Under the pieces are notes generated by a model. It was not told the DNA's origin and did not search any database. It saw nothing but the letters and a program-made list of their open reading frames with translations. DNA of 64,000 bases. Origin: Candidatus Dojkabacteria bacterium (GTDB lineage: Bacteria > Patescibacteriota > Dojkabacteria > SC72). Location: contig JAVEZR010000001.1 in the NCBI GenBank assembly GCA_034002865.1, positions 53,247 through 117,246 of the forward strand, read 5' to 3'. Both the position numbers and the translations under genes were made by a program. Shown in pieces: positions 32,781 to 62,973 of the stretch. Position 1 is the stretch's first letter. Each line of letters begins with the position of its first letter.

Positions 32781-32783
32781 ATT

Positions 32784-34220: not shown

Positions 34221-34237
34221 CGGCAGTTTAGAGTAAT

Positions 34238-35236: not shown

Positions 35237-35672
35237 TCTTATTAGATTCTGAGTTTAAAAATTCTTGAAGAAACACAGTCGCAGCTATCTTATCTATCTT
35301 ATGTCTTGATGACTTAGTATTCTGTCCTAGGGATAGTAACATATTTTGAGCTTCAGTTGTAGAATAGCTTTCATCTTGATATATGATAGGGAGATTGGTC
35401 AATTGAGAGAGCTTTTCTTTAAATGATTCTATTACCTTTGTAGTTTTAAGATGCTTACTATCAAAGATTTGAGGATTTCCTAAAAGTATAGTTTTTATTC
35501 TATACTCCTCTATTATCCTAAGAATATCTTGAATTAGAGTATCCATACTTCTTCTCTTTGTTACTTCGAGTACCTCTAGTGGAGAAGCTATGACTCCCTT
35601 ACTGTCAGAGAGTGCTAATCCAATTCTTTTGTTGCCATAGTCTATGGCTAATATTGGTTTTTGGGTTTGCAT
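35220..35672 (-). CDS. ruvX: Putative pre-16S rRNA nuclease / Holliday junction resolvase-like RuvX (YqgF)
   Basis: ILAIDYGNKRIGLALSD N-terminal motif; 150 aa. Confidence 0.85.
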   Translation of the reverse strand: MQTQKPILAIDYGNKRIGLALSDSKGVIASPLEVLEVTKRRSMDTLIQDILRIIEEYRIKTILLGNPQIFDSKHLKTTKVIESFKEKLSQLTNLPIIYQDESYSTTEAQNMLLSLGQNTKSSRHKIDKIAATVFLQEFLNSESNKNEDHN

Positions 35673-35674
35673 AT

Positions 35675-37423: not shown

Positions 37424-37467
37424 AGGAATGATTATACCAAATGAGAACTCTGTATTCGAGGAGAATA

Positions 37468-39324: not shown

Positions 39325-39341
39325 TAGATATATAATAATGG

Positions 39342-40685: not shown

Positions 40686-40705
40686 TAAATATCATTGTAC
40701 AAAAA

Positions 40706-46076: not shown

Positions 46077-48182
46077 ATGCTTTTTAATCATAAAATATAC
46101 GAATTTGAAATAGATGGTAGGAAGTGTTCCTTTGAAACAGGAAAGCTTGCCTTGCGATCTGAATCTGCAATTATTGCCAGAATGGGCGATACTGTTGTAG
46201 AAGTTAATGTGAACAGTGCTCCAGCAAAAGGAGATCTCGACTATTTCCCTCTCTCTGTAGAGTACATAGAAAGATTCTATGCATCTGGAAAGATAAATGG
46301 GTCTAGATTTGTAAAGATAGAGAGATATCCTAGTGATGATGCTGTTCTTAAGGCAAGGATGATAGATAGGGCACTACGTCCTAGATTCCCCAGTGATTAC
46401 AGAAATGAGGTAAGTCTAATTGTAACTGTAATGTCATATGATGAAGAGAATGACCCTGTCCTCTTAGCAATTAATGCAGCTTCAGTTGCTTTACTTAATT
46501 CTAAGGCACCATTCAATGGACCTGTATCAGGTGTAAGAATGGGGATTGTAGATGGGAAGATAAAGCCAATATATAAGAGTATGGAGGATGTAGATGAGAA
46601 GAATCAAATGAACTATGTAGTAGGTGGAGATGGAGAGCAGTTCTCAATGATTGATGCAGGCTGTTATGAAGTACCAGAGGATCAAGTAATAGATGCAATG
46701 GAGAGTAGTCTTGTAGAAATGAAAGTATGGGTAGAGGAACAGAACAAATTTGTAGATATGTTAGAGAAGAAAGATAAAGCATATGTACCATTTGTAATAG
46801 AAGAAGATATGCTAAATGCTATTTCAGAATTTCTAGGAGATAGGGTATTAGAGAATCTCTTAGCTGCTGATAGACAGAAGCATGAGGAAACCAAAGAGGA
46901 GATGTTTAAGCAGTTTGAGGGTAAATATACAAAATCAAATATGACAGAAGCATATGATAAGCTTCAGAAGAAAGCATTACGTAAGTATGTAAAAGAAACC
47001 AAAAAGAGAGTTGATGGAAGAGAGTTAAATGAGATTAGGGAAATGGCTGCAGAGGTAGATTTACTACCTAGAGTCCATGGATCTGCCCTCTTTACAAGAG
47101 GAGTAACCCAAGTTCTCTCTATAGCTACATTAGGTAGTCTTAAGGATGCAAAGTTAGTGGACGATATGTTAGGTGAGAAAGAGAAAAGATATATGCACTT
47201 CTATAATGATTTACCATTCGCATACGGTGTCGCAGACAGAGTTAGGTTAAATCCAAGTAGGAGAGCTGTAGGTCATGGAATGTTAGCAGAGAAAGCCCTT
47301 ATTCCTGTAATACCATCAGAGTCAGATTTCCCATATACAATCCTAGTTATGTCTGAGATACAGGGAGAGAATGGATCTAGCTCAATGGCTTCAGCATGTG
47401 GTTCCTCTTTAGCACTAATGGCAGCAGGTGTCCCTATACGAAAGATAGTGGGTGGTATTGCTTGTGGTCTTGTTGCAGATGAAAACGGAGAGTTTCATAT
47501 CTTAACTGATATGCAAGGTGTAGAAGATTTCTATGGAGACATGGATTTCAAAGTAACAGGTACAAAGGATGGAATAACTGCAGTACAAATGGATACTAAG
47601 ATGGCAGGATTGAGTATGGATATTGTTAAGGCAACATTTGAAGTATCTAAAGAGGCAAGAGTAAAAGTAATTGAAGTAATTGAAGGCTCTCTTTCTGAGT
47701 CTAGAGGAGAAATCTCTAAGTTTGCACCAAAGGTAGCTAGAGAGAAAATACCCGTAGACAAGATTGGAGAGTTAATTGGCCCTGGAGGTAAAAATATTAG
47801 AGAATTAACTGAACAGACTGGAGCAGAGATAGCTGTAGAGGAAGATGGTACTGTAAATATATACTCTTCAAGTCAAGAGTCTATAGATATGGCACTGAAA
47901 TATGTTAAAGGTCTTAGCTTTGTACCAGTAGTAGGAGAGATATATGACGGTAAGGTAGCCTCTATCATGGAGTACGGAGCCTTCGTAGATATTGCTCCAG
48001 GAGTATCTGGCTTAGTACATGTATCTGAGATTACAGATGAATTTGTAAAAGATGTACATAAATTCCTTAATGAGGGAGACAGTGTAAAGATAAAGATATT
48101 GGAGAAAGATAAGCTTGGGAGATTAAAATTCAGTATCAAACAGGCAACAGAAGGAAATAAGAGAGAAGAAGTTCAGGAGTAA
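46077..48182 (+). CDS. pnp: Polyribonucleotide nucleotidyltransferase (PNPase)
   Basis: 701 aa. Two RNase PH-like domains, then KH (IGELIGPGGKNIRELTEQTGAEI) and S1 (GKVASIMEYGAFVDIAPGVSGLVHVSEI) domains. Confidence 0.95.
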   Translation: MLFNHKIYEFEIDGRKCSFETGKLALRSESAIIARMGDTVVEVNVNSAPAKGDLDYFPLSVEYIERFYASGKINGSRFVKIERYPSDDAVLKARMIDRALRPRFPSDYRNEVSLIVTVMSYDEENDPVLLAINAASVALLNSKAPFNGPVSGVRMGIVDGKIKPIYKSMEDVDEKNQMNYVVGGDGEQFSMIDAGCYEVPEDQVIDAMESSLVEMKVWVEEQNKFVDMLEKKDKAYVPFVIEEDMLNAISEFLGDRVLENLLAADRQKHEETKEEMFKQFEGKYTKSNMTEAYDKLQKKALRKYVKETKKRVDGRELNEIREMAAEVDLLPRVHGSALFTRGVTQVLSIATLGSLKDAKLVDDMLGEKEKRYMHFYNDLPFAYGVADRVRLNPSRRAVGHGMLAEKALIPVIPSESDFPYTILVMSEIQGENGSSSMASACGSSLALMAAGVPIRKIVGGIACGLVADENGEFHILTDMQGVEDFYGDMDFKVTGTKDGITAVQMDTKMAGLSMDIVKATFEVSKEARVKVIEVIEGSLSESRGEISKFAPKVAREKIPVDKIGELIGPGGKNIRELTEQTGAEIAVEEDGTVNIYSSSQESIDMALKYVKGLSFVPVVGEIYDGKVASIMEYGAFVDIAPGVSGLVHVSEITDEFVKDVHKFLNEGDSVKIKILEKDKLGRLKFSIKQATEGNKREEVQE

Positions 48183-48203
48183 TCTCTAAATTGGTATTGC
48201 AAG

Positions 48204-48235
48204 AGGGGAGGCTTAGCTTCCCCTTTCTCTTTCTA
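48204..48235 (+). terminator. Rho-independent terminator after pnp (9-bp stem aggggaggc / tta / gcttcccct, then T-rich run)
   Basis: Hairpin at 48204-48224 followed by ttctctttct. It lies between the convergent pnp and rsmB-family genes. Confidence 0.6.
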
Positions 48236-48240
48236 ATACC

Positions 48241-49299
48241 CTATGCTTTAACTATCTTAGCAATATAGAACCCCATCATTTCAGGAGAGGGTAAAATTCT
48301 AATACTCTTTTTAACTGAAGGATCATATGTATTACCACTCCAATGAGTTATACCAGGAGATGTAAACTGCTTAAAAGCTTTAAATTTGTCAGAGCTAATT
48401 AAATCTATATCTACTACCTTTGCATTCCTATGCTTATCTAATAGGTATGTAACAATCGCTTCATTCTCTTCTGGTTCTAATGTACATGTAGAGTAAACAA
48501 GTGTACCACCACTTTTTAATGTTCTAAATGCAGACTCTATTAACTCCTTTTGTAGAGTAGAGGAACCTTTTACTTTCTTAATACTCCAAAATCTTAGAGG
48601 TTTAGGACCCTTTAGATATATCATTCCCTCACCACTACATGGAGCATCTAGAAGAACTTTATCAAAATAGTCTGGGTACTTTCTACCAAACTCTCTTGCA
48701 TCACTAAGAGTAATCTTTACACTTGTAGCACCAAACTGTTCTACAACATTCCTAAGTGAATTTGTACGACTAACTTCTATTTCATTTGCAAGAATGGTTG
48801 CCTTATTATTTGTTAACTGTGCAATATGGGTAGTCTTACTACCAGGTGCGGAGCATAGATCAACGATAGTCTCCCTTGGCTTAGGATCTAATACCAATGT
48901 ACCTAATATGCTAGAGAGATTTTGTATATAGAAATCTCCATGCCTATACTCCTCTGTTTGTGACACCTCATCCTTATCCCTGTTATTAACAAAGTAGGTA
49001 TCAGGAGCCCACGGTATCTCCTCTAAGACATAACCCCTAAGCTTTAAACTTTTAAATGTATCCTGTGGTCTAGCTTTAAGAGAGTTTAATCTAATAGTAG
49101 TTCTTGCTCTTTGGCTAAATATTGGTACTATCTGAGCCTTAGATACTCTTAATATACTTGCCATTCTTGAGATAAAGATATCCTCTTTCGTGTAATATCT
49201 TTCCTCTTTAGAGCTATCATAGAAAGGAACTGCTCTTTTCCTCTTAAAATTTGTTCTTAGCTTCCTCTTAAATTCTCTTCCCTTTTTTCTATCTTTCAT
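48241..49299 (-). CDS. RsmB/RsmF (NOL1/NOP2/Sun) family rRNA cytosine-C5 methyltransferase
   Basis: SAM-binding DLCSAPGSKTTHIA, and catalytic LLDAPCSGEGMI and TLVYSTCTLEPEENE motifs. There is no NusB-like N-domain. Confidence 0.75.
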   Translation of the reverse strand: MKDRKKGREFKRKLRTNFKRKRAVPFYDSSKEERYYTKEDIFISRMASILRVSKAQIVPIFSQRARTTIRLNSLKARPQDTFKSLKLRGYVLEEIPWAPDTYFVNNRDKDEVSQTEEYRHGDFYIQNLSSILGTLVLDPKPRETIVDLCSAPGSKTTHIAQLTNNKATILANEIEVSRTNSLRNVVEQFGATSVKITLSDAREFGRKYPDYFDKVLLDAPCSGEGMIYLKGPKPLRFWSIKKVKGSSTLQKELIESAFRTLKSGGTLVYSTCTLEPEENEAIVTYLLDKHRNAKVVDIDLISSDKFKAFKQFTSPGITHWSGNTYDPSVKKSIRILPSPEMMGFYIAKIVKA

Positions 49300-50027
49300 T
49301 ATATATCTCCCTTTAGATATTTTAATATACTACCAATTACTAACCCTGCTGTTTCTGTTCTTAGCATATTACCCTCTAGTTTAATAAAGCTAAATCCTAA
49401 ATCTTTGAATATCTCTATATCACTCTCACCCCATCCCTTCTCAGGACCTATTGCAATCACAAATGGCTTCTTTATATTAACACCCTTTACATACTGACTT
49501 AGAGAGGATGTTTGTACATTCTCTGTAGCTAGACATATCTTATTACTACCTTCATCTACAGAGAGCTCTGTAATTTTAATAGGTTTCTCTATTATCGTAC
49601 TCTTTAAAGTTCTAGATTGTTCTACAGCATCTTTAATAATCTTTCTCCAAAGACCGTAATCTTTAATAGCCTTGTTTTTACTTCTAAGAGAATATTTAGA
49701 CTCTATTGGAACAATTCTATCTATACCAATCTCTACAGATTTTTCTATAAAGAAGTTAAACTTACTATCATTACTTAATGATTGAATAATTGTAAAATCT
49801 ATTCCATCTAAAACATCCTTCTCTTCAATCATCTCTCTGATCTCTACCTCCACAGAGCTCTTCTCTATATCTGTTACTATTGCTAAAAAGATAGATTGAT
49901 AGTTCTCTATTTCAATAACATCTTCAATATTGAGCTTCAGTGTATTAATAGCAAAGCTACTATCTTTGTCTGATAGGTGAGTAATATCTCCCTCTTCTAA
50001 TTTATGACTAATAAAGAATCTTTTCAT
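49299..50027 (-). CDS. rsmE: 16S rRNA (uracil1498-N3)-methyltransferase RsmE
   Basis: MKRFFIS... N-terminus, IAIGPEKGW and NMLRTETAG motifs; 242 aa. Confidence 0.75.
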   Translation of the reverse strand: MKRFFISHKLEEGDITHLSDKDSSFAINTLKLNIEDVIEIENYQSIFLAIVTDIEKSSVEVEIREMIEEKDVLDGIDFTIIQSLSNDSKFNFFIEKSVEIGIDRIVPIESKYSLRSKNKAIKDYGLWRKIIKDAVEQSRTLKSTIIEKPIKITELSVDEGSNKICLATENVQTSSLSQYVKGVNIKKPFVIAIGPEKGWGESDIEIFKDLGFSFIKLEGNMLRTETAGLVIGSILKYLKGDI

Positions 50028-50080
50028 ATGTGCTCATTATACCACCTAGGAGCTTAAAACGTTGTTTTTTAGTATAAAAC

Positions 50081-50109
50081 TTGACATGTTAAGCAAAAAA
50101 TAATTAGAT
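50081..50109 (+). promoter_or_regulatory. Candidate promoter for the 7-gene envelope operon (perfect -35 TTGACA; weak -10)
   Basis: TTGACA at 50081-50086. The best -10 candidate 17 nt downstream is TTAGAT, a poor match. The 115-nt region is AT-rich and sits between divergent rsmE and the operon. Confidence 0.25.
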
Positions 50110-50142
50110 GTATTAATAACTAAAGTTTAAATATTTGAAAAT

Positions 50143-50463
50143 ATGGAAACAATCCCCCCTTTATATTGGATGATAATTATTGCAATAGGAGTAGGCTTTA
50201 TCTGCTTCGTCCTATATGAATTTGCAATGCTAATTAAAGAGTCTAAGAATGCTGTAGCTGATTCAAGGAAGATTATTCAAGAAGCTGAGAAAACAGTGGA
50301 TATGGCTAATAAAATTGTAACAGAGGCAACAGAGATTGTAGGAGTTGTAAAAGGTACAGTCTATGAATTAAATAGTGCAATAATAAGGCCAGTGAGAAAG
50401 ATTTCATCATTGGTATCTGTAGCATCCGCATTTACTGAGGGTTTAACCTCTAAAAGAAAGTAG
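50143..50463 (+). CDS. Small single-pass membrane protein with a coiled-coil tail (first gene of the envelope operon)
   Basis: 106 aa. TM LYWMIIIAIGVGFICFVLYEFAML, then a heptad-like helical region. Confidence 0.4.
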   Translation: METIPPLYWMIIIAIGVGFICFVLYEFAMLIKESKNAVADSRKIIQEAEKTVDMANKIVTEATEIVGVVKGTVYELNSAIIRPVRKISSLVSVASAFTEGLTSKRK

Positions 50464-50504
50464 AAATCGTTGCTATTGCGTTTCTCTCTTTGTATGATGA
50501 ATAG

Positions 50505-52127
50505 ATGCATTTAACACCTTACCAAAAAAGACAGCTGAAGATTGTTGTTGCTTTAGTTATAGGCATACCATTAACAATATTTGCCGTATATCAAGGTATT
50601 CAGTATCTCTCCAAAGCAAGTGCAGATGTAACTCCTCAAGATGTTGTAATTACTAACCTAACAACTAACTCTCTTACAGTAACATGGTTTACGCAGAGTT
50701 CTGCAGATGGATATGTTGTTCCACTATTAAATGGAGTAGAGCAAAGTCCTGTTAGAGACAAAAGGGGGAGTGGCAAGAGAACATCCCACTATGTTGAATT
50801 AAGAAGTCTAGAGCCTAGTACTAAATATAGCTTTACGATAGTGTCAGGAGGTAGTAAGTATACGAATAGTAGTGGTATAAACTATGAGTTTACAACTGCA
50901 CCTGTTGGTACTGATACTCCAATTCCAAACCCTATACATGGTACTGTAACAGGGATTTCTAATGATGATGTTGTTGTGTATGTATTCCCTAAAAACAAAA
51001 GTACATATCCAGTATCTACAACAATCCCAAGCGGTGGTAACTGGATAGTAGATCTTTCTTCTTTGAGAAAGATATCTGACAAGAGTATGGTAAAGATTAC
51101 TGATGATACTGAGTTAGTATTAATGGCTAAAAATACTGCAAATAAAGGAGCAGTACTAGAGGGGTCATACTCATCTCTTTTTGATAGTAATGGGAAATTA
51201 AATAGAACACTCTCCTTAGCTATAGGAGAGCTTGGAGATCTCATTACACACTTTCCTGACGATTCGAAGTTAGGAACGAAAGCTGTAGTTACTACCAAAC
51301 CTACTCCAACTCCTACGCCGAAGCCTCCTACAACTCCTACTAAAGATCCTGATGAAGAAGATACCGATACAGTTGTAGATCGAGATTATCAAATAGTGCA
51401 TGATTTAAGATGGGTAGATATGGTTACTGGGCAGGCTACTAGTAACTTACAAAGTGGAGAGGGTACAGTACTGATTACAAACTTAACAGATGTAGGCTTT
51501 ACTGTTGTATGGAGATCTCCTCAGAAAGTAGATGGATATATAAAGTATGGAACAAGTAAGACATCTCTTACAGAAGAGGTTTGGGATGTTAGAGATGGTT
51601 TGTCCAATAGAGGTACATACTATGCTCACTCAGTAGAGAGTAAAAGGGTAGATCCCGATACTACATACTACTTTACAATATACTCTGGAGAGGATATCTA
51701 TAACAACTCGGGAAGTATGTACTCTGTTACAACTCTTCCTACTTTAAGTTCTCCTCCTCCCTTTGAAACTAGATCTGGTTCTCTTGGAGAAGTGTCTACT
51801 CCTGGTGATTGGATAGTAGTTGCTAAAATTGTAGATGACGATGAAGCAGGTACATTGGGTAGCTCTAAGTTAATGTCTACAATCCCAGATGATAATGGGT
51901 ATTGGATATTAACAGTAGGAGATACTAGAAGTGAGGATGGTAGTACATACTTCTCATTCTCTAATACAGATATACTTAATATATACTTCTTAGGAGCAAA
52001 GGAGAAGCTATTTGAATTCCCTATGTCTATCTCTGAGATTAGCTTAGATACCTCTTCTGTAGGTAGTGCTGTAGTAGAAAGTAGTGTTAAATTGCTTTCT
52101 GATTATGGAATAGTTAATATAAAGTGA
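50505..52127 (+). CDS. Secreted or anchored protein with two FN3/PAP-N-like domains in tandem-duplicated modules
   Basis: 540 aa with an N-terminal TM or signal. Module 1 is TNLTTNSLTVTWFTQSSADGYVV...TSHYVELRSLEPSTKYSFTIVSGGSKYTNSSG. Module 2 is TNLTDVGFTVVWRSPQKVDGYIKYG...YYAHSVESKRVDPDTTYYFTIYSGEDIYNNSG. A Thr/Pro-rich linker (KPTPTPTPKPPTTPTKDP) separates them. Confidence 0.5.
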   Translation: MHLTPYQKRQLKIVVALVIGIPLTIFAVYQGIQYLSKASADVTPQDVVITNLTTNSLTVTWFTQSSADGYVVPLLNGVEQSPVRDKRGSGKRTSHYVELRSLEPSTKYSFTIVSGGSKYTNSSGINYEFTTAPVGTDTPIPNPIHGTVTGISNDDVVVYVFPKNKSTYPVSTTIPSGGNWIVDLSSLRKISDKSMVKITDDTELVLMAKNTANKGAVLEGSYSSLFDSNGKLNRTLSLAIGELGDLITHFPDDSKLGTKAVVTTKPTPTPTPKPPTTPTKDPDEEDTDTVVDRDYQIVHDLRWVDMVTGQATSNLQSGEGTVLITNLTDVGFTVVWRSPQKVDGYIKYGTSKTSLTEEVWDVRDGLSNRGTYYAHSVESKRVDPDTTYYFTIYSGEDIYNNSGSMYSVTTLPTLSSPPPFETRSGSLGEVSTPGDWIVVAKIVDDDEAGTLGSSKLMSTIPDDNGYWILTVGDTRSEDGSTYFSFSNTDILNIYFLGAKEKLFEFPMSISEISLDTSSVGSAVVESSVKLLSDYGIVNIK

Positions 52128-52130
52128 GGT

Positions 52131-53504
52131 TTGTTAATTGTTTATAAATGCATTAGAATCATTTGCTTAATGGATATTAAAAGTACACTCTTAAAATTTA
52201 AACCCATATTCTTCTTACTACTAATGTCTTTTGTGACCTTTACTCTTGTATGGACAGTTAATCAGTTTAAAGATAGCTCTGAGTTTGTATCTGCCAAAGA
52301 GAACACTAAGGAGTTAAATTCTGTAGAAATAGTATCTCCTGTTTTAAATGAAAGTGATAGTGCAGTACCTGAGAAAGTGCAGGAGGATAACAAACCAATA
52401 GTGTTAAGTACAATAGCTTCTAGTGAATGCTCTGCATCGGTCATTAAGATAGACTCATACTCGGTTTGTACTAGAGGTGGCAGTGCAGAAATAGACTATA
52501 AAGATGGGTACAGATCGGGTACCTCTGTAAGTAAGAACTCAACCGTTGAACTAGTAGAGGTTAATATCCCTCTAGAGCTATTCTCAGGTTCTGGTGTAAA
52601 AGATTCGAATAGGAAAATTACAACAAAAACACCGATATATAAACCTGCAGGAGAACAGCTCGATCCTAAGGTCGCAAATGTAAAGCTACCTCCCGGTACT
52701 AATATAGTTGAGTATAAAAGCCCAGTAAAAGATAGACCTTTCTCTACACCATACACTACATCGATGGCAGATCAGGTATCAGAAGATGGTGAGGTGATTG
52801 TTGATAAGAAGATAATAAATAATTGTGAAGAGTGTAATAACCCTTCTAATGTGAATCCAGATAACTCAAATAAAAGCTCTGAATTTGTATATGAATCTCT
52901 GTATAAAGCACCCGGAGAAAAAGCTACCGCTAACACATCTAAAGCTATTGAGTCTTGTACTGAGGATGATCAATTTGTAGATTGGCCATCTCCAGCATCT
53001 AATAGAAAAGCATGTGCTACATCTCCTATAGCTGTTGCAGTAAAGCTTATACAGACATTCTCTGAAGCGATATGGAGCGAGTGTAATGGGATTTTGAAAT
53101 ACGATGCTAATGGTAATCCTATTCCTCCTAGCGATAATTGTATTCGTCCTGAAGATATTGTAATAAAGATGACATCGGCTTTTGGTTCGGACAGAGAGTG
53201 TCTTGATGGTGTGTGTACGAATGCATATATGAATACAAGAAATAAAGTAGCATTGATGCCTTCAGAGTCAGAGAAGTATTCAGATAAGGTATATTACACT
53301 ACAGATTGTAAGGTAATTATCGAAGGTAAGAGATATACTGTAAAGTGTGCATGGGATATGTCTCATCTATTTAAAGAAAGGAAGTTCTCGGAGTATGATG
53401 ATTTACCAGATATTGAGAAAACTCCTCCCAAAGAGGTTTATAAAGATTTTTTAACCAATGAAGCTACTAAGAGACAGTATGAGCCAGTAGTAAAAATATA
53501 TTAG
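52131..53504 (+). CDS. Cys-rich secreted or anchored hypothetical protein
   Basis: 457 aa. The probable start is the internal Met (MDIKSTLLKFKPIFFLLLMSF) with a TM anchor. More than 20 Cys in the extracytoplasmic part. No known motif. Confidence 0.45.
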   Translation: MLIVYKCIRIICLMDIKSTLLKFKPIFFLLLMSFVTFTLVWTVNQFKDSSEFVSAKENTKELNSVEIVSPVLNESDSAVPEKVQEDNKPIVLSTIASSECSASVIKIDSYSVCTRGGSAEIDYKDGYRSGTSVSKNSTVELVEVNIPLELFSGSGVKDSNRKITTKTPIYKPAGEQLDPKVANVKLPPGTNIVEYKSPVKDRPFSTPYTTSMADQVSEDGEVIVDKKIINNCEECNNPSNVNPDNSNKSSEFVYESLYKAPGEKATANTSKAIESCTEDDQFVDWPSPASNRKACATSPIAVAVKLIQTFSEAIWSECNGILKYDANGNPIPPSDNCIRPEDIVIKMTSAFGSDRECLDGVCTNAYMNTRNKVALMPSESEKYSDKVYYTTDCKVIIEGKRYTVKCAWDMSHLFKERKFSEYDDLPDIEKTPPKEVYKDFLTNEATKRQYEPVVKIY

Positions 53505-53526
53505 ATTAATTTATTAACAAACAACA

Positions 53527-55011
53527 ATGAGTATATCTCTTAAAGTATATGGTAGCGGTCTTAGGATAAAAAGATTCCTAGGCACTAAAACATTCCAGAG
53601 CTCTCTTATTGCTTTCTTGTCGGTATTGATGTTCTTTGGGACATTTAATATATATGCTCAAGAAGGTATTTCGCCTGAGTGGGAAGGTACAAAGAGGTTT
53701 CACAATATTATAAGTGGAACTGACGGAGAGGAAGATAATATGAACAGTATGCAAGGATTGGAAATTCTAAATTCCGGTTGGGCAATTTTCTCTATTATGG
53801 TACCAGAGGCTACTCAGAATGCAGATAAAGTACTGTCGGATTCAAAAATCCCTAATGACTTAAAAAGGGGAGTCCTTGGAATGGCTGAAGATGCTAGCTA
53901 TGCTGCGTATGCATCATACCCTTCAGTAGATGTGGGAAAACATTTAGCTCAACAGTGGGTACCTGGCTATCAAGAGAGCGTTACAAGCTTGTATGCACAG
54001 AGCTCTTCTGCAGGACATGAATCGGGATACTCTGAATTAATGGGAAGTGGAATAGTGAAGCTATGGAATAGGGTGTTAAATATTGCATATGTAGCATTTG
54101 TTGTAGTAATGATAGCTGCAGGCTTTATGATTATGTTTAGACATAAGCTTGGTGGTCAGACTATGGTAACCATAGGGAATGTATTACCAGGAGTTATTAC
54201 AGCCCTTATTATTGCTACATTCAGTTTCGCTATAGCAGGATTAATAATAGATTTCGGTGGGGTATTAACCTCTATTGTAGTGTTTATTCTAAAAGGGAGT
54301 TCGGATTTGAATATTCATAGTACATCTAACATATATACACTGATGATAGGGGCCTTTGGTAATGTACTCAATGATCTCGGGAAGCTGTCTCCTGTACATA
54401 CGGGAGTTGGAGTAATAGACAAAGTATTAGATCTCTCAGCTATAGTAATAGGTATAGTTGGAACCGTTGCAACAGTCGGTATTCCACTGTTAATTTTAGG
54501 ATTAATTACAGCCGGTGTTGTTTTTGTTGGGGCTGTGAAAGTTTTAATTGTCCTGTTCAAGGCATACTTTAATATCCTCCTAAATACAATTATTGGTCCT
54601 GTTCAGATTGCATTAAGTGCTTTGCCTGGAAATGGACACATGCTTCAAAATTGGTTTACAAGTATACTCAGAAATGTCTTAGTCTTTCCTTTGGTATTAG
54701 CAATAATAAATATACCAAATGCTATTGTTGCTGCTACGGATGGAGATTTTGATTTAAAACTCCCTGAGAAGCTAACATATGATCAGAATCAAGGTATTTT
54801 TGAAACTTTAGTTCCAAATCTTGGACTGAATATAGGAGGAGGTTTTGTAATGGTTCTCTTTAGAATCTTTATCCTTTATTTCGCAGCTCAAGCACCTAAA
54901 TTCCTTGAAGCGTGGTTACCACCTAATACTCCAAAGCCAGTTGGAGAGGCTATGGTGTCGGCGAAAGGTAGTCTATCTAAAGTTCCTTTGATTGGAACAC
55001 TATTTAAGTAG
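53527..55011 (+). CDS. Polytopic membrane protein (~7-8 TM) with a signal peptide and ~150-aa extracytoplasmic N-domain; VirB6/TrbL-like architecture
   Basis: 494 aa. Signal-like N-terminus (LIAFLSVLMFFGTFNIYAQE). Multiple Gly/Ile/Val-rich TM helices (e.g. VLDLSAIVIGIVGTVATVGIPLLILGLITAGVVFVGAVKVLIVLF). Resemblance to VirB6/ConG-type proteins rests on architecture only. Confidence 0.4.
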   Translation: MSISLKVYGSGLRIKRFLGTKTFQSSLIAFLSVLMFFGTFNIYAQEGISPEWEGTKRFHNIISGTDGEEDNMNSMQGLEILNSGWAIFSIMVPEATQNADKVLSDSKIPNDLKRGVLGMAEDASYAAYASYPSVDVGKHLAQQWVPGYQESVTSLYAQSSSAGHESGYSELMGSGIVKLWNRVLNIAYVAFVVVMIAAGFMIMFRHKLGGQTMVTIGNVLPGVITALIIATFSFAIAGLIIDFGGVLTSIVVFILKGSSDLNIHSTSNIYTLMIGAFGNVLNDLGKLSPVHTGVGVIDKVLDLSAIVIGIVGTVATVGIPLLILGLITAGVVFVGAVKVLIVLFKAYFNILLNTIIGPVQIALSALPGNGHMLQNWFTSILRNVLVFPLVLAIINIPNAIVAATDGDFDLKLPEKLTYDQNQGIFETLVPNLGLNIGGGFVMVLFRIFILYFAAQAPKFLEAWLPPNTPKPVGEAMVSAKGSLSKVPLIGTLFK

Positions 55012-55022
55012 TCCAATTCTTT

Positions 55023-57632
55023 ATGGCTAAGAAGTCTAAAACAGAAAACTTTGATGCTTTAGGTAGTGTATTTGATTTTCTCTTTACTGAGGCTAAGAAA
55101 CCACCAGATAAAAGGAAACCAATTAAACCTACAGGAGTAGCTGGAGATAGCGCACTTACTGACGCTTTGTTTTCATCTTTAGAGATGCCAGGAGCATTTG
55201 TAACAGATACCATTGTAGACGAATTTAACGGGGCAATAGATATTGAGTTGGGAAGGGTGAAATATGGAGAATACGGTAATGTAAAATTCACGACGACATC
55301 TTTAATTGATCTTTTGAAAGACCCTGAGAAAGCTTTCCAAAAAGCTGTTACTACTCAGAAGGCAATCCGAAAATCTCAGAGAGCGATGTTTCTTGGTGCT
55401 GCAATGGAAGATTTGGTTACCTCTGCATGGGCGCATAAGTACGGTAACCTCGAGGCAAGAGCTGCTATCTATGGTGCGTCCGTAGCTAATAGAGCAGAAA
55501 GTTACAAAATTGAAAGAGCTCTTGGGCAGTTTGGTGCATCACACAAGGAAGATGGAGTATCAAAGTTACAAGGTACTGGAGCTCCTGGGCGTTTCTCTCC
55601 AAAAGATTTAAACTTCATGGCCGATAGGTCAACTGATTTACTAGGCAGTAAGACGTTCGGTAGCAATTGGAATACATTGAGTGACTCGGATAAAGCGGAG
55701 TTTGCGAGCCAAGTAAGTGGAAAGAAAACTTCTGAGATACAGACATACTTAGCAAAGAAATATGGAACTACTATTCCAAGTGCAGCTACTAATTTTGGAG
55801 CAGCCGTTGGAAGTACAGAGAACGTAGATATCTTTAACGGTGCACTGTATAAGAAATTAGAAGGTGCTAATTTGCAAGATAAAATTGCGGATCCCTCAAC
55901 ATCTTCTGAAGAAAGAGAGATATACAAAAAAACATACTACTTATTACAAAGGGACAAAGTAACTCTTAATACTGCAATAAAGGATATTAAGGATAGATTA
56001 AAGAGAGCTACGTCTTCAGTAGATAAGGCAGTATTAGAGAAGGAGTTAAAAGAGACTAGAAATGTTCTAAGGATTGTACAAGGGCATGGTGTTTTCGGAA
56101 GAATTGGTCAAATTGAAGGATATTATAACTCTCTAAACAATATTTATGGAGGAGTATTAGGTTCTAATTTCGCTGCTAGTGTGTTAAATGGAAAACTTTA
56201 TGATAAAAACCAAAATTCCTTATTCTTACCTGTAAGTGAGGCTAAGGTAGGTGGCGTGGATATCTTAGTTGCAAAGGATAGTCCTTACAAGTTACTAGGT
56301 AAGTATAACCAAGTCATGACCGATATATACTATCTTACACCTAGATCATTGGCTCGTAATTTCTATAATGGCGAAGGTTTTGCATACCTTTTACATAAGA
56401 AATTGATAAATATAACTAAGCTTCCTGCTTTTTCAAAACTTTCTAGCTTAGGAATAGATAAAAAAACATTATTAGAAGGATTTAATAGTAAAGACATAGA
56501 TACTTTTATTAATGATTTATTGAAAAAATCTTCAGGTATATTGAATGCTAAAGAGTTAGAAAAACTTGAAAAGTTTCTACAGTCATCAAAAACTCTTAAA
56601 AAATTAGCTCATAGATTTAGTTTTGTCTCTAGAGTTCAAGAATCTTTGAATAAGGCACTTGGAGAGCAACTAAAGAAATTCCGTACTGAGATTAAAGATT
56701 GGATATTGAAAAATCCTAAGGTTCTCGCTTGGTTTACAAAAGTAGGTGCCGATAAGTTACTAAAACAGTGGGCTCTTAAAGGAGGAATCGATGTTTTAAT
56801 AAAATCTCTTCTAAGTGCAATAGCCAGTGCATTAGGACTAAGTATGGGCCCTGTAGTTAGTGCTATTGTAGGAGGATTAACGATGATTGTATCAGGTGTT
56901 GTAATGAAAGTACTAGGCGTTGGATTGAATATGCTGAAGTGGGCTGCAATAGGTGCATTCGCTATCCTACTTATTATCCCTACATTAGGTTACGGTTCTT
57001 TAATTAGTTATAATCAAAAGAATTTATCATATAAGTTGGAAACCCCAGGATCAATAATTCAATGCACAGTATATCAAGAAACAGAGCTTGAAGAGGGAGA
57101 TACCCCTTGGGGAGACACAATTATACCTCCTCCATCTGGAGAAAGCTGTATATTTGGAGCAGGAAGCTTTGGATGTTCACAAGGATACAATGATGTAGAT
57201 GGCTGGACCCATCAGAGAACCTCACATCTAATGCCTGTAGACTTAACATCCGTAGGATATATATATGCTCCTCAATTTTGTAGTACAGGGAATTGTAGTA
57301 TTACAAGAATTGCAATGATTAACTGTAGTGATGGATCTAATGCTGGAGGTATAGTTGAATTAACTGCTACAAGTGGAGGTACTACTTACTTCTTTAAACT
57401 ACTACATGTAAAACCTTTGGCAGGATTAGGTGAGAAGCTCTCAGGAGGGCAGGCTGTTGCAGTAGTTCAAGAATCTCCAGAGGTAGAGAAAGGATGGTGT
57501 TGGACAGGTAAGCATTTACACTTAGAAACAAGACAGAATGGTGCAGTAGTAGATCCTTTGGAATTACTACAAAGTTTTAGCTGTGGAGTACCTGATGAGT
57601 CCAGTTGTAGTAGGCCAAAACCTAAGTTATAA
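55023..57632 (+). CDS. Membrane protein with a ~570-aa cytoplasmic N-domain, 2-3 TM helices and a C-terminal extracytoplasmic Cys-rich M23 (LytM-type) peptidase domain
   Basis: 869 aa with no signal peptide. TM block LSAIASALGLSMGPVVSAIVGGLTMIVSGVVMKVLGVGLNMLKWAAIGAFAILLIIPTL. The C-terminal domain has M23 motifs HxxxD (SHLMPVD) and HxH (GKHLHLETRQNGAVVDP). Confidence 0.6.
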   Translation: MAKKSKTENFDALGSVFDFLFTEAKKPPDKRKPIKPTGVAGDSALTDALFSSLEMPGAFVTDTIVDEFNGAIDIELGRVKYGEYGNVKFTTTSLIDLLKDPEKAFQKAVTTQKAIRKSQRAMFLGAAMEDLVTSAWAHKYGNLEARAAIYGASVANRAESYKIERALGQFGASHKEDGVSKLQGTGAPGRFSPKDLNFMADRSTDLLGSKTFGSNWNTLSDSDKAEFASQVSGKKTSEIQTYLAKKYGTTIPSAATNFGAAVGSTENVDIFNGALYKKLEGANLQDKIADPSTSSEEREIYKKTYYLLQRDKVTLNTAIKDIKDRLKRATSSVDKAVLEKELKETRNVLRIVQGHGVFGRIGQIEGYYNSLNNIYGGVLGSNFAASVLNGKLYDKNQNSLFLPVSEAKVGGVDILVAKDSPYKLLGKYNQVMTDIYYLTPRSLARNFYNGEGFAYLLHKKLINITKLPAFSKLSSLGIDKKTLLEGFNSKDIDTFINDLLKKSSGILNAKELEKLEKFLQSSKTLKKLAHRFSFVSRVQESLNKALGEQLKKFRTEIKDWILKNPKVLAWFTKVGADKLLKQWALKGGIDVLIKSLLSAIASALGLSMGPVVSAIVGGLTMIVSGVVMKVLGVGLNMLKWAAIGAFAILLIIPTLGYGSLISYNQKNLSYKLETPGSIIQCTVYQETELEEGDTPWGDTIIPPPSGESCIFGAGSFGCSQGYNDVDGWTHQRTSHLMPVDLTSVGYIYAPQFCSTGNCSITRIAMINCSDGSNAGGIVELTATSGGTTYFFKLLHVKPLAGLGEKLSGGQAVAVVQESPEVEKGWCWTGKHLHLETRQNGAVVDPLELLQSFSCGVPDESSCSRPKPKL

Positions 57633-57644
57633 AACTAAGATATA

Positions 57645-58616
57645 ATGAAAATACAGGGAAGTAGAAAGAATGCCTTCTATATTCTAATAGCCTTTATAAT
57701 TATCATCTCAGTAGTACTTCTAATAGTGCTAAACTCCCTTTATGCTAAACAGTATCCAGAGGAACCAATTAAGATGAAGAACCTTGGTAAAAGTACTCAA
57801 ACAATTGATATATCTTCCTTAAGTAAAAAGATTGAACAGGAAGATATCCCTGTATATTTTGTACACCCAAGATTACATATCTCAAATGTAGAGGAGATGA
57901 TTGATAAAATGGGTTTGTCATTAAAAAGAGAAGATATAGTTAAAGATAGCTATATCCAATGGAGTGATGGGGAAAATAGCTTCACATATGACTCTGTACA
58001 AGACACAGTATCGTTTCAATTAACAAGAAGGATATCATTAGAAAGAGGGGTAGAAGCTTTTAAGAATGTATTTCAAAAGTACCTAGGTATCCAACACGAT
58101 TATGTTTTAATTAAAGAGAGAAAGAACAACGATGGAGGAGTAACTTACTACGCTTCTCGTACCTTAGATGGTATTCCTGTTCAGTTTGGTGCTAACTATG
58201 AATACTCTGAGATTTTAAAATTTAACAAGGAGGGAGTTTTAGAATCAGGACAGTTACTATTAGCAGAGTTTGAGAAGTATGATCTATATGTTCCAACCAT
58301 TACCAATGATGAGTTAAAAGCGTATATAAATGCAAAAGATTATCCTAAAGAGCACTATATAGATAGCTCTGTATTAACAGAGACATTAGATCTTAACTAT
58401 CTTGATGAAGCCTGGGGAGAAATAGAGGGCACATTGGAGGAGTGTAAGGCTCAAGATTTTGAAAATATCTTTCTTTACAAAAATAGTAATCAAGGATACC
58501 TTTTACCCGTAGTAAAGATATCTGCTAATTGTAATGTTACTAGTAAAGCCACTGTATATACCGTACCCGTAACTTTCTATGTTAATGGAGTTAGCCCCGA
58601 TTATGTGACTTTGTAA
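57645..58616 (+). CDS. Hypothetical membrane-anchored extracytoplasmic protein
   Basis: 323 aa with an N-terminal TM (FYILIAFIIIISVVLLIVL). No motif. Confidence 0.4.
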   Translation: MKIQGSRKNAFYILIAFIIIISVVLLIVLNSLYAKQYPEEPIKMKNLGKSTQTIDISSLSKKIEQEDIPVYFVHPRLHISNVEEMIDKMGLSLKREDIVKDSYIQWSDGENSFTYDSVQDTVSFQLTRRISLERGVEAFKNVFQKYLGIQHDYVLIKERKNNDGGVTYYASRTLDGIPVQFGANYEYSEILKFNKEGVLESGQLLLAEFEKYDLYVPTITNDELKAYINAKDYPKEHYIDSSVLTETLDLNYLDEAWGEIEGTLEECKAQDFENIFLYKNSNQGYLLPVVKISANCNVTSKATVYTVPVTFYVNGVSPDYVTL

Positions 58617-58623
58617 GCATCTT

Positions 58624-59829
58624 TTGTGGTACAATATTGAAATGAAAATATTCAGATTATTTACAATTCTCTTTGTTACACAACTCTTCTTCTTACTTCT
58701 TGGTAGTACTACTTACGCTATGGATATTACTACCAGAGAAGATCTTAAATTAGATAGTACTCTCTCAGAAGAGGAGTCACTCTTTACACAACCTCAGAAG
58801 ATATATATTACTCAGGTAAAAAGTTTAAACAAAGAGCTTAAGAATGATAGTCGTGCATGGGTAAGGTCAATATATTACTACAGTATTACAAGGTTAAAAT
58901 TAAATGATATACCTTACAACTATCTTGTAGATAGTAGTGGAAATGTATTTGAAGGAACAAGGGGTGGAGCTGGAGCAAATCCAGGCCTACAGGGAGGAGA
59001 TAACGTTGTACTTATAGGGATACTAGATAGTGATTCAACATTAACACCTAGAGCTCAAAGCTCCCTTGTAGAGTTAGTTGAAACTCTTTCATATAAGTAT
59101 GGGATAAAGGAAGGCTCTTGGGATTTTGTAGATTTACAGATTGCTATGAATGAGGGAGAGAGATCATATCTTACATATACGTCATCTAGTAGCTCTGTAT
59201 CGCAAACTATAACCCAAACAATGTCTTCTGTACGTTGGTCAGCAGAGGAGCATTTAGAGTACAAGGCAAGTATAGTAGATGTTGAATATCCAAAAGAGAT
59301 AGAGGTAGGTAAGCAGTTACCAGTGAAGGTTACAATTAAAAATGAGAATGATTTTACTTGGTTTAGTGATACTAAGTATATCTATATCTCTACTGCAGAT
59401 TCCTCTGAGAGTCCATATGCTATTAACTCTGCATGGGAGAGTTTTAGTAGGCCTACATATATTAAAGAGAAATATGTAAAACCTGGAGATAGTGTAGAGG
59501 TACAGTTTAATATGCTAGGTAAGAGCAAACCTGGGGAGTATAAAGAGGAGTTTATTTTTGTTAAGGATAGTGCTTCCCAATTTAAAGATTCAAACTTTGA
59601 AGTAACTTTTAATATCATTGCTGGAGAGTATAAGCTTGTAGAAGTAGTATCTCCACAGTATGGATTTGTAAATATTCGTGAATGTAGATGGTATAGCTGT
59701 GCAAAGATAGAGGTAGCAAATGATGGAGACGTCTTTATTATGAACAAGAAAGAGGAGGGATGGTATGAAATTTACTACAACGAAGGGAATTTAGGTTGGG
59801 TATCCCAAACCTATATGAAAGAGCTATAG
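58624..59829 (+). CDS. Secreted PGRP/amidase_2-like peptidoglycan-binding protein with a C-terminal SH3b-like domain; the zinc ligands appear to be missing
   Basis: Signal peptide. PGRP-like core (IPYNYLVDSSGNVFEGTRGGAGANPGLQGGDNVVLIGIL vs PGRP DIGYNFLIGGDGxVYEGRGW...GAHA...NxxSIGI). The expected His and Cys ligands are not evident. The C-terminus (EGWYEIYYNEGNLGWVSQTYM) is SH3b-like. Confidence 0.5.
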   Translation: MWYNIEMKIFRLFTILFVTQLFFLLLGSTTYAMDITTREDLKLDSTLSEEESLFTQPQKIYITQVKSLNKELKNDSRAWVRSIYYYSITRLKLNDIPYNYLVDSSGNVFEGTRGGAGANPGLQGGDNVVLIGILDSDSTLTPRAQSSLVELVETLSYKYGIKEGSWDFVDLQIAMNEGERSYLTYTSSSSSVSQTITQTMSSVRWSAEEHLEYKASIVDVEYPKEIEVGKQLPVKVTIKNENDFTWFSDTKYIYISTADSSESPYAINSAWESFSRPTYIKEKYVKPGDSVEVQFNMLGKSKPGEYKEEFIFVKDSASQFKDSNFEVTFNIIAGEYKLVEVVSPQYGFVNIRECRWYSCAKIEVANDGDVFIMNKKEEGWYEIYYNEGNLGWVSQTYMKEL

Positions 59830-59914
59830 CTTATAGCAAAATTTCTTCTGATATCTTTATCTTATAACCCTGTTTTACTATCTATTACTAATCAATTTAA
59901 ATATAATCAATCAC

Positions 59915-61924
59915 GTGGCACCTCAAGATATAATTCTCGGAAAACTAAATCCACAGCAAAGAATTGCAGTGGAAACAACAGAGGGACCTTTGCTCGTATT
60001 CGCAGGGGCTGGATCAGGTAAAACAAGAGTTATTACCAACAGAATAGCCTACCTAATTACAGAGAAAAAGGTTTCTCCCGAGAACATCCTGGCAGTAACA
60101 TTCACTAAAAAAGCAGCAGGAGAAATGCAAGAAAGGGTAGTAGGACTTCTTAAGGAGTTAAATGTCAATGCAAAGAAACCTCCACTTATTGGAACTTTCC
60201 ATTCAATAGGTGCACTCTTCCTTAGGGAGAATTCTAAAGAGGTAGGATTAACTCCCAACTTCTCTATCTATGACAGTGCAGATTCTGAGAACTTAGTAAA
60301 AGATATACTTGTTGAACAGGGTATTGATATAAAACAGATTAGGCCTAAGGCTATCTCTTACTTCATATCCTCTGCAAAGAATGAAATGGTTTCCCCTGAG
60401 AACTTTAGAAATCACTACGGTGGCTTTATAGAGGATATTGTTGCAGATATATATCCTTTGTATCAAAAACAGCTATTAGCACAAAATTCTGTTGATTTTG
60501 GAGATCTCCTATATCTAGCAGTGAAACTACTTTCAGAGAAGAAAGATGTTCTTTCTAGATATCAAGAGTATTACAGATATATGATGATTGATGAGTATCA
60601 AGATACTAACAATGCACAGTATATGTTTGCCAAATTACTCTCTGAGAAGTATAAAAATATATGTGTAGTAGGTGATGATGATCAGGGTATATATGCATGG
60701 AGAGGTGCTGATATTAAAAATATTCAATCTTTTGAAAAAGATTTTGAGAATGTAAAAACAGTTAAGTTGGAACAGAATTATAGATCTAGTGCTAATGTAA
60801 TAGATGCTGCTACTGCTGTTATTAAACAGAATTACTCTAGAGTAGAGAAGGCCCTTTGGACAGAGAAAGAGTCAGGAGAGAGTATTACTGTATATCAATC
60901 ATTAGATCAAGATGATGAAGCTCAGTATGTGATGGATGAGATAGAGAATCTGAAGAGAAAGGGAGAAAAGCTCTCTAATATGGCAGTACTGTATCGAACT
61001 AACTATCAATCTCGTGTAATTGAGGAGGCTCTCTTAAAGAGAGGTTTGCCTTATAAATTGGTAGGAGGTTTTAGATTCTATGAGAGAAAAGAGGTAAAAG
61101 ATATTCTTAGCTATATGAGGTTTATACATAATATTAAAGATGAGTTAAGCCTTTCAAGAATATTAAATACACCTACAAGGAAAGTAGGTCCTAAGTCAGT
61201 GGCAACACTGCATGAAATTGCAAAATCATGTGAATGCTCTGTAGGAGAATTACTGGTAGCCACATATGAGATTGAGAATAGTATAGAGAGAAGATTAAAA
61301 ATATCCCCTCAGAGATATTCTAAAATAGAGGAAAAGATCTCTTTAATGGGTAAGTATACAAACTTAGTAAATATCTTTGGGGAAATATATACTGACTCAC
61401 AAGGGGAAGATGCTCTTACTGTAATAGACATTATTCTAAGAAAAATTAAGTATATACAGTGGATGGATGATGGTTCAGAGGCTGCAGAGTACAAGAAAGA
61501 GAATATAGAGGAGCTAAAGAATGTTGCCAGCAGTTATGCCCAGAAACATGGAGATAAATCTTTAGACGTACTCTTACAAGAGATAAATCTTTTAGAACAG
61601 GAACAGGATAAAAATCAAGATGGTAGTGGTAACTATGTTAACCTTATGACTTTACACTCTTCTAAAGGTTTAGAATTTGAAAATGTCTTCATTATTGGTA
61701 TGGAGGAAGGGATACTTCCACACTCTAGATCTTTCACTGATGAAGATGGCTTGGAAGAGGAAAGAAGGCTTTGCTATGTAGGTATTACAAGAGCAAGAGA
61801 GAAGCTGTATTTAACATTCGCAGATAAAAGGCAGGGAAGAGAAGGATATAATACTCAGATACCATCTAGATTCTTAGGAGAGATACCTCAAGATATTTGT
61901 GAATATTACAGTTGGCAAACTTAG
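59915..61924 (+). CDS. uvrD: ATP-dependent DNA helicase UvrD/PcrA family
   Basis: GTG start. LNPQQRIAVETTEGPLLVFAGAGSGKTRVITNRIAYLI (motifs Q and I), DEYQDTN (II), VGDDDQGIYAWRGA (III), and the C-terminal VGITRAREKLYLT (VI). 669 aa. Confidence 0.9.
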   Translation: MAPQDIILGKLNPQQRIAVETTEGPLLVFAGAGSGKTRVITNRIAYLITEKKVSPENILAVTFTKKAAGEMQERVVGLLKELNVNAKKPPLIGTFHSIGALFLRENSKEVGLTPNFSIYDSADSENLVKDILVEQGIDIKQIRPKAISYFISSAKNEMVSPENFRNHYGGFIEDIVADIYPLYQKQLLAQNSVDFGDLLYLAVKLLSEKKDVLSRYQEYYRYMMIDEYQDTNNAQYMFAKLLSEKYKNICVVGDDDQGIYAWRGADIKNIQSFEKDFENVKTVKLEQNYRSSANVIDAATAVIKQNYSRVEKALWTEKESGESITVYQSLDQDDEAQYVMDEIENLKRKGEKLSNMAVLYRTNYQSRVIEEALLKRGLPYKLVGGFRFYERKEVKDILSYMRFIHNIKDELSLSRILNTPTRKVGPKSVATLHEIAKSCECSVGELLVATYEIENSIERRLKISPQRYSKIEEKISLMGKYTNLVNIFGEIYTDSQGEDALTVIDIILRKIKYIQWMDDGSEAAEYKKENIEELKNVASSYAQKHGDKSLDVLLQEINLLEQEQDKNQDGSGNYVNLMTLHSSKGLEFENVFIIGMEEGILPHSRSFTDEDGLEEERRLCYVGITRAREKLYLTFADKRQGREGYNTQIPSRFLGEIPQDICEYYSWQT

Positions 61925-62868: not shown

Positions 62869-62973
62869 GTTTTTAATATTTTCCTCTGCTTGTCAATTAG
62901 AGGTTACAGGAAAGTATAGCATGATTGATAAAACATGTGTAAAATGAAAATATATAGTTTAATGTAATAGAAA

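Follow-up and report, generated by a model that had tools for sequence, protein, structure and literature searches.

A large share of the uncultivated bacteria belongs to the Patescibacteria, and within these the Dojkabacteria are tiny and probably host-dependent. The question addressed here is which function is fulfilled by seven consecutive genes, designated O1 to O7, on contig JAVEZR010000001.1 of a Candidatus Dojkabacteria bacterium (assembly GCA_034002865.1). The analyzed stretch of DNA, in the following termed the window, comprises 64,000 nucleotides (nt; positions 53,247 to 117,246 of the contig), and all coordinates given below refer to it. On balance, it is rather likely that these genes represent the membrane and cell-wall module of a split type IV secretion system (T4SS) of the Patescibacteria type, which is derived from the MPF-FATA conjugation machinery of Gram-positive bacteria and distributed over at least two loci.

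Organization of the operon

Seven tightly packed reading frames on the plus strand, separated by gaps of 3-41 nt, had been described in a first inspection of the sequence (in the following, the original prediction), and their coordinates and lengths were exactly reproduced:

O1, 50143-50463, plus strand: first gene of the operon; 106 aa, bitopic protein with an N-terminal transmembrane (TM) helix and a helical tail

O2, 50505-52127, plus strand: 540 aa, N-terminally anchored surface protein with two modules, each consisting of FN3 and a beta-rich part

O3, 52131-53504, plus strand: 457 aa, TTG start, secreted or anchored Cys-rich protein

O4, 53527-55011, plus strand: 494 aa, polytopic membrane protein, VirB6-like according to its modelled fold

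O5, 55023-57632, plus strand: 869 aa, cytoplasmic domain, TM cluster and putative extracellular M23 peptidase domain

O6, 57645-58616, plus strand: 323 aa, bitopic protein, with a predicted extracellular YycI/YycH/YpeB-like (PepSY-type) fold

O7, 58624-59829, plus strand: 401 aa, TTG start, secreted or anchored protein with PGRP-like, Ig-like and SH3b domains

From O1 to O7, the intergenic gaps amount to 41, 3, 22, 11, 12 and 7 nt. Hydropathy analysis revealed an N-terminal hydrophobic segment or multiple TM helices in all seven products; membrane or secretion features are thus found in each, as expected for the envelope proteins which they had been taken for. Judging from the lengths of the orthologs, the ATG codons at 52170 (O3) and 58642 (O7) are probably the true starts rather than the listed TTG codons. 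A promoter and terminator scan of the operon gave counts no higher than those of shuffled sequence and was uninformative with regard to a single transcript. Sequences identical to O4 and O5 are recorded as hypothetical proteins in a metagenome-assembled genome (MAG) of Candidatus Dojkabacteria.

O4 is a VirB6-like membrane protein according to its fold

For O4, hydropathy and the structure model indicate an N-terminal TM helix or signal, followed by an extracellular domain (about 130 aa) and approximately seven to eight hydrophobic helices. The structure was modelled with AlphaFold2 on the basis of 25 homologs, with an overall pLDDT of 66 and values of 80-90 in the TM core. When this model was used as query in Foldseek, the five top matches were all TrwI/VirB6 (probability 0.98-1.00), and the next match followed with a probability of 0.25. 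A second structure-comparison program also placed O4 with the VirB6/DotA fold. The fold is common to O4, VirB6/TrwI and DotA over 214-234 residues at a sequence identity of 11-14%. The layout of about eight TM helices in the manner of VirB6/TrbL, which had been read from the sequence of the 494-aa protein, is thus matched by the fold in both programs. An exhaustive profile search with O4 yielded 3483 clusters of relatives at 50% identity, and one distant member of the family showed a weak match to Pfam TrbL/VirB6 (PF04610, E 5e-3), which lies under the curated cut-off. According to the model, O4 is VirB6-like, and this membership is based on fold, not on sequence.

Four of nine inspected distant loci of the O4 family lie in T4SS clusters, and all four possess genes for VirB2-type pilins. 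L085 contains a pilin array together with PrgI and a TraC/TrsD-like gene, L087 and L093 contain pilin arrays, and L092 contains PrgI and an M23 protein of 1473 aa besides a pilin. With profiles of O5 and O6, homology to this M23 protein and to a 313-aa protein of L092 was not detectable.

O5 combines a cytoplasmic domain with a putative wall hydrolase

No hydrophobic segment occurs in O5 before residue 588. Residues 1-587 form a cytoplasmic domain with a conserved N-terminal motif and are followed by a TM cluster (588-663) and a Cys-rich extracellular domain of putative M23 type (~664-869). The M23 matches are weak (Pfam E 3e-3, with 18.2 bits at a cut-off of 28.7; PDB profile E 9e-4); several orthologs are annotated with PF01551 in precomputed Pfam data, and one has a CHAP domain in its place. 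Of 62 orthologs, 60 possess H795; H831/H833 (HxH) are found in O5 itself and in about 70% of the orthologs. The first M23 motif exhibits a non-canonical spacing, with H730 and D740 instead of the canonical HxxxD. Hydropathy, the M23 matches and the PF01551 annotation of orthologs agree with the architecture that had been proposed for the 869-aa protein, namely a large domain in the cytoplasm, TM helices and an M23 peptidase outside the membrane. Throughout the class, conservation of O5 is highest in the first 45 residues (46% mean pairwise identity versus 24% for residues 141-587).

VirB2-type pilins from other loci of the candidate phyla radiation repeatedly showed non-significant matches to O5 (E 0.014-0.23). 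These are probably compositional, the Gly/Ala-rich TM helices (588-663) being suspected as their site.

A distal VirB4 operon complements O4 and O5

A second operon in the window encodes the presumed energizing part of a T4SS:

PrgI-like (VirB3-type) gene, 22384-23220, minus strand: first gene of this operon; 278 aa, Pfam PrgI (E 3.8e-5), hydrophobic residues 26-75

TrsD/TraC-like gene, 21728-22384, minus strand: 218 aa, phmmer E 1.4e-41 to the PF26593 TraC-like gene that follows PrgI in L085

VirB4-type ATPase gene, 19354-21759, minus strand: 801 aa, Pfam P-loop_TraG (E 1.3e-29), in addition AAA_10, DUF87 and TraC_F_IV

The neighbours of this operon (19354-23220) are genes for an AAA ATPase and a nucleotidyltransferase as well as recF; genes for VirB6, a hydrolase, a pilin or a coupling protein do not adjoin it. 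VirB4 is located approximately 32 kb from O4, and a rough count in the list of open reading frames (ORFs) gave more than 20 genes between the two. Co-occurrence of the seven genes with VirB4 had been suggested for inspection, and the VirB4 operon of the same window was found to be devoid of VirB6 and hydrolase. Since the seven-gene operon supplies both, the two loci are complementary, and from this complementarity alone the VirB4 operon may be regarded as the partner module of O1 to O7. A VirB2 pilin profile, constructed from the pilins of L085, L087, L092 and L093, gave nothing significant in the window.

Apart from the secretion genes, this side of the window contains a ThyX-like ORF (14422-16017) of 531 aa, in which the Thy1 domain is restricted to residues 41-221; for the other roughly 300 aa there is no assignment.

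O4 and O5 are coupled

In comparison to the close relative L091, the DNA of the window is 88-90% identical over 47698-54269 and 56994-63250, and 41-68% identical between these segments. The divergent segment is an allelic block that crosses the gene boundary:

Exchanged allelic block, 54269-56994, plus strand: 2.7 kb, O4 residues ~248-494 and O5 residues 1 to ~657

The left breakpoint recurs in comparison to L005 and L006. At the protein level, identity to L091 drops within the block (C-terminal half of O4 49%, N-domain of O5 39%, TM region of O5 32%) and is high outside of it (O2 and O3 91% each, M23 domain of O5 93%, O6 89%, O7 94%). The replaced block thus corresponds to the membrane and cytoplasmic core, with the extracellular domains left out. 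Because the mosaic crosses the boundary between O4 and O5 and ends at domain borders, the block was replaced as a unit, which would reflect the co-inheritance of interacting parts.

Dojkabacteria possess a second locus with O4 relatives, which is situated by dnaA, dnaN, rnpA and yidC in L086, L088 and L090 (GCA_050950125.1; approximately 7-15 kb in each). Besides a 233-aa protein, it encodes extended O4 paralogs (one or two, of 593-878 aa), which are followed by a protein of 660-684 aa, the N-terminus of which is homologous to that of O5 (hhalign 94.7%, E 6e-8, common FDFIF...KP motif). The latter protein is shorter than O5 and gave no M23 match. An FtsA/PilM-like gene is located near this locus on the opposite strand. 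The paralog pair near dnaA, the recombination block spanning the gene boundary and the collinear gene set of L084 described below show that O4 and O5 are coupled.

It is conceivable, though doubtful, that the C-terminal half of O4 and the cytoplasmic and TM part of O5 constitute an exchangeable core cassette, of which whole interacting alleles are swapped between Dojkabacteria lineages. A reason for such swaps could be that the cytoplasmic face chooses the cargo or is a target of phages or of rival factors, and the machine may even be a host conduit distinct from classical VirB4-driven secretion.

These data also bear on an explanation in which the operon encodes an autonomous conduit for attachment to a host or for feeding. 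Here, a VirB6/DotA-like channel would work without VirB4, the FN3, Cys-rich and wall-binding proteins would make contact with the host, and cleavage of the host's peptidoglycan would fall to the M23 domain. Such a conduit would agree with the genomic independence of the cluster from VirB4 throughout the class, with the several O4 paralogs per genome, which stand in tandem near dnaA apart from the seven genes, with the presence of surface-type domains and with the exchange of O4/O5 core alleles between relatives. However, the operon contains no gene for an energy source, and no VirB6-family protein is known to act without a VirB4-type ATPase. Moreover, the exchanged block is cytoplasmic and membrane-embedded, not surface-exposed, and fits poorly to a determinant of host specificity. 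This explanation is considered improbable.

Conservation in Dojkabacteria and in L084

Related loci were collected by a pattern scan with one genome per species, in which an O4 relative was confirmed in 430 stretches, and the best 80 of these were fetched. To examine synteny, all proteins of the window were compared by tblastn with 83 loci. Conserved orthologs exist for each of the seven ORFs. Wherever a related locus is sufficiently long, the order O1 to O7 is unchanged, and in all Dojkabacteria loci that reach far enough the cluster sits between rsmE and uvrD. In the window, the upstream flank encodes NusA, IF2, S15 and PNPase on the plus strand, followed by RsmB and RsmE on the minus strand; the downstream flank encodes a UvrD/PcrA helicase and then a G5-domain protein. 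The G5 protein (61921-62868, minus strand) has a weakly transglycosylase-like (Rpf-type) C-terminus, and its gene keeps its place directly behind uvrD in almost all related loci.

The more distant genome L084 carries the cluster between other flanks, with type IV pilus genes on one side and ftsQ/A/Z/W on the other. It contains a compact, collinear version:

O1-like gene: 105 aa, precedes the O4-like gene, E 6e-3 in a search of 16 sequences

O4 relative: E 1.6e-60

161-aa gene

O5C protein: 365 aa, matches the TM and M23 part of O5, E 1e-29

O6-like gene: 328 aa, E 2.7e-5 in a small search

This collinearity amid other flanks is more informative than the synteny within the class. The gene order, the absence of which from related genomes would have counted against a single system according to the original prediction, thus recurs throughout the class and, next to other flanking genes, in L084.

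The same data argue against the idea that the operon is the remnant of a mobile element, either a conjugative element or a prophage, which became fixed in the chromosome. M23 domains together with long helical proteins can resemble phage tape-measure proteins. A PHROG scan, however, gave no phage-like matches save a marginal one to a peptidase and speaks against a prophage or tape-measure protein. The genes of T4SSs originate ultimately from conjugative elements (PMC12102498), but neither an integrase nor a relaxase is found nearby, the GC content of the operon is uniform with that of its flanks, and its chromosomal place between rsmE and uvrD is fixed, the flanks being different in L084. A mobile remnant is thus largely refuted and hardly credible.

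Two further observations concern the related loci. In L003, a further gene (3783-6737), the product of which comprises about 984 aa and includes a Pur_ac_phosph_N/FN3 domain, is located between rsmE and O1. A gap of 3-4 kb separates rsmE and O1 in many other loci, and several relatives carry the ~984-aa FN3 gene there, which the window lacks. Furthermore, contigs with the cluster (L005, L012, L023 and others) are filed as MAGs of Clostridia, Gammaproteobacteria, Prolixibacteraceae or Saccharibacteria, and many of them are third party annotation records of 'uncultured Candidatus Saccharibacteria'. This is probably due to bin contamination or coarse labels.

O6 has a predicted PepSY-type fold and O7 is a putative wall binder

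O6 possesses a single N-terminal TM helix according to hydropathy, and its structure was modelled with confidence (pLDDT 89, pTM 0.83). The best structural matches of the model are YycI, YycH and YpeB, and on this basis O6 is predicted to be a PepSY-type bitopic protein. The original prediction of an anchored 323-aa protein without assignable function stands with regard to the anchor, while a fold has now been assigned. The YycI/YycH/YpeB-like fold of the model rules out that O6 is a VirB8-like NTF2 protein, although no other bitopic product has a size that would suit VirB8. With the O6 profile, the only match in the PDB was FliF, which was non-significant and confined to the TM region. YycH and YycI are regulators of WalK, and YpeB is the partner of the lytic enzyme SleB; O6 shows no similarity to them at the sequence level, the seven-gene operon comprises no histidine kinase, and its context is T4SS-like and not that of sporulation or WalRK.

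In O7, the profile search against the PDB detected SH3b (E 4e-7) and PGRP (E 1e-4 to 1e-2), and Pfam matches were obtained for SH3_3 at the C-terminus and, weakly, for Amidase_2 in the N-terminal part; an Ig-like domain lies in the middle. Both searches agree with the PGRP-like and SH3b domains originally ascribed to the last protein of the operon. The zinc site of T7 lysozyme and of PGRPs requires two His residues plus Cys or Asp. Residues 1-205 of O7 contain no His at all, and there is no invariant His or Cys in this region across 25 orthologs. Because the zinc-ligand His residues are absent, the PGRP-like domain would be a binding module rather than an enzyme, and most probably it serves as a non-catalytic wall-binding module.

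The assignment of O6 is one point in favour of another explanation, according to which the operon encodes a complex for wall remodelling or wall homeostasis that is unrelated to VirB4. O5 would then be controlled by O6 together with O7 and O2, and O4 would be a mere scaffold with the helical fold of VirB6. Besides the structural matches of O6 to YycI, YycH and YpeB, this would fit to the wall-directed nature of O5 and O7, to the cluster never adjoining VirB4 in Dojkabacteria and to its position next to ftsQ/A/Z/W in L084. The window also contains the G5/transglycosylase-like gene and genes for MurJ, LytR-CpsA-Psr and YceG. On the other hand, the VirB6/DotA match was specific in two programs, relatives of O4 reside elsewhere inside pilin/PrgI/TrsD clusters, and neither a histidine kinase nor any other WalK-like partner is encoded in the operon. 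In addition, ordinary turnover enzymes need no cytoplasmic domain of 590 aa, no FN3 stalks and no Cys-rich partner. A complex of this kind is considered unlikely.

O1 is a small membrane protein, O2 and O3 are putative surface proteins

O1 contains one hydrophobic segment (residues 2-33), and one of its orthologs showed a weak DUF948 match. In O2, a TM helix (residues 9-33) precedes Pfam matches to fn3 (residues 43-114) and to the FN3-like Pur_ac_phosph_N (residues 325-410); a Pro/Thr-rich linker joins the two modules. The profile of O2 orthologs matched FN3 domains in the PDB (E 6e-7), so that Pfam and the profile search agree on the duplicated FN3-like modules noticed earlier in the 540-aa protein. 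The 457-aa protein O3, which had been described as Cys-rich, contains 14 Cys residues and an N-terminal hydrophobic segment; across 23 orthologs, eight of the Cys residues are invariant and two nearly invariant. No match to O3 was obtained in Pfam, NCBIfam, PHROG or the PDB, also with a sequence profile against the PDB, and its relatives are detectable solely inside the class.

Other surface-type proteins are encoded elsewhere in the window. A sortase gene (40706-41506, minus strand) lies near large surface-type proteins within 30035-41506, among them a 578-aa protein with DUF11 and a 618-aa protein with Big_7; in addition, small ORFs of He_PIG and FN3-like type are present at 29253-30051. Adhesins or substrates of the sortase may be represented by these proteins.

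Proposed function of the operon

Based on the observed folds, domains, gene order, genomic contexts and recombination block, a model of the T4SS can be proposed, to which physical assembly of the products, partnership with VirB4, direction of transport and cargo are added as suppositions. O4 would be the VirB6-like subunit that builds a membrane platform or channel, on which PrgI(VirB3)-TrsD-VirB4 might dock to power the machine. O5 may be held beside O4 by its TM helices and its cytoplasmic domain, and its M23 endopeptidase could open the peptidoglycan locally, corresponding to the role of VirB1, PrgK or CwlT. Fold and adjacency suggest that O6 might restrain or position the O5 hydrolase, as YpeB does for SleB. 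O7 would anchor the assembly to peptidoglycan, either that of the cell itself or that of the host. The FN3 stalk of O2 and the Cys-rich O3 are candidates for the surface-exposed, host-facing part, and O1 may be a small membrane accessory. The complete machine could move material between the epibiont and the host cell.

Several findings weigh against this interpretation. The O4 model is of moderate quality and the Foldseek TM-scores are low (0.3-0.46); at the sequence level, O4 matches neither Pfam TrbL/VirB6 nor PDB sequences nor PrgH, and no match was found in NCBIfam. O6 does not have the NTF2 fold of VirB8, and the folds nearest to it belong to systems of wall homeostasis and germination. 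In none of the inspected Dojkabacteria loci was VirB4 or PrgI located closer than 10 kb to the cluster, and among the ORFs of the window, which were scanned against Pfam, there was no coupling protein, relaxase or VirB2 pilin. Within the class, synteny extends to the housekeeping flanks and thus, taken by itself, shows general genome stability and not selection specific to the unit. Finally, the cluster of L084 adjoins genes of type IV pili and of cell division.

Comparison with known secretion systems

The original prediction of a trans-envelope apparatus is supported. Whereas a match to a described system had not been possible from the sequence alone, the cluster can now be matched to the T4SS of Patescibacteria (PMC10633639, PMC12102498). 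In Southlakia epibionticum, the sole species tested genetically, growth on the host requires the T4SS, which comprises the TrbL/VirB6 protein SEML1_0013 and, by VirB4, a protein of roughly 1100 aa whose C-terminus is formed by a metallopeptidase domain (PMC10633639). In its proposed role, O5 parallels the large peptidase protein SEML1_0007 of Southlakia. The Patescibacteria T4SS (SEML1_0006-0019; Quinonero-Coronel et al. 2025) is likewise of the monoderm type, with PrgI/VirB3, TrsD, VirB4 and a polytopic VirB6-like protein. It resembles the genes described here also in its large proteins ending in a wall peptidase, in the lack of a relaxase nearby and in its conserved chromosomal location. In contrast, the VirB6-like and hydrolase genes of the window lie about 32 kb from virB4 in an operon of their own, and no VirB2 pilin array and no NTF2/VirB8-like protein was found in the window. 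The Southlakia VirB6 protein comprises 1088 aa in comparison to 494 aa of O4, and for the system of Saccharibacteria no description of counterparts of O1, O2, O3, O6 and O7 was found.

Plasmid pCF10, which represents the MPF-FATA class, carries prgH-[prgI-prgJ]-prgK-prgL, and the sequence of a VirB6-like protein, a hydrolase and a bitopic protein is mirrored by O4-O5-O6. It likewise encodes a membrane-anchored hydrolase of about 870 aa and no outer-membrane core. VirB6 and a wall hydrolase are regular parts of T4SSs in Gram-positive bacteria, and the distal VirB4 operon has neither. Differences from pCF10 are that O5 contains an M23 domain only, together with a large cytoplasmic domain, that O6 has a predicted YycI-like and not an NTF2 fold, and that the operon lacks a coupling protein, a relaxase and a PrgB-type adhesin. 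Profiles of O4, O5 and O6 showed no similarity to PrgH, PrgK and PrgL in hhalign (probability <2%), single-sequence templates being a weak test. The resemblance of the 869-aa protein to PrgK, which had been suggested for examination, thus holds for role and architecture, but not for the sequence (O5 profile versus PrgK, hhalign probability likewise <2%, with the same weak template).

VirB6/TrwI of R388 and DotA of the Legionella Dot/Icm system share the topology of O4, an N-terminal external domain followed by at least five TM helices. A VirB5 or IcmX partner is not recognizable in the operon. The position of O3 upstream of O4 may parallel that of virB5 upstream of virB6.

The 2025 survey of Patescibacteria considered only genes within 20 coding sequences (CDS) of virB4. 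In several classes, VirB6, VirB8 and VirB1 appeared scarce or missing, which was put down to divergence (PMC12102498). According to the same survey, VirB8 homologues occur in few Patescibacteria (PMC12102498). Most Patescibacteria systems also lack a coupling protein and a relaxase. In the Dojkabacteria, the VirB6-like and hydrolase parts that seemed to be lacking are present, though far from virB4, in an operon that is present throughout the class and annotated with hypothetical proteins only. Surveys centred on virB4 probably missed this envelope half, as it is located about 32 kb away and, by the rough count, outside +/-20 CDS. This suggests that surveys of virB4 neighbourhoods under-count T4SS components in reduced genomes. 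The operon provides a concrete list of parts for the wall-spanning half of the machine, including a proposed regulator of the hydrolase (O6) and proposed binders of wall or host (O7, O2, O3), and the recombining O4/O5 block marks those pieces which probably touch each other. The kind of system is already known. New are the split arrangement, the accessory set specific to Dojkabacteria, with a predicted YycI-like protein in the place of VirB8, and the recombining O4/O5 block.

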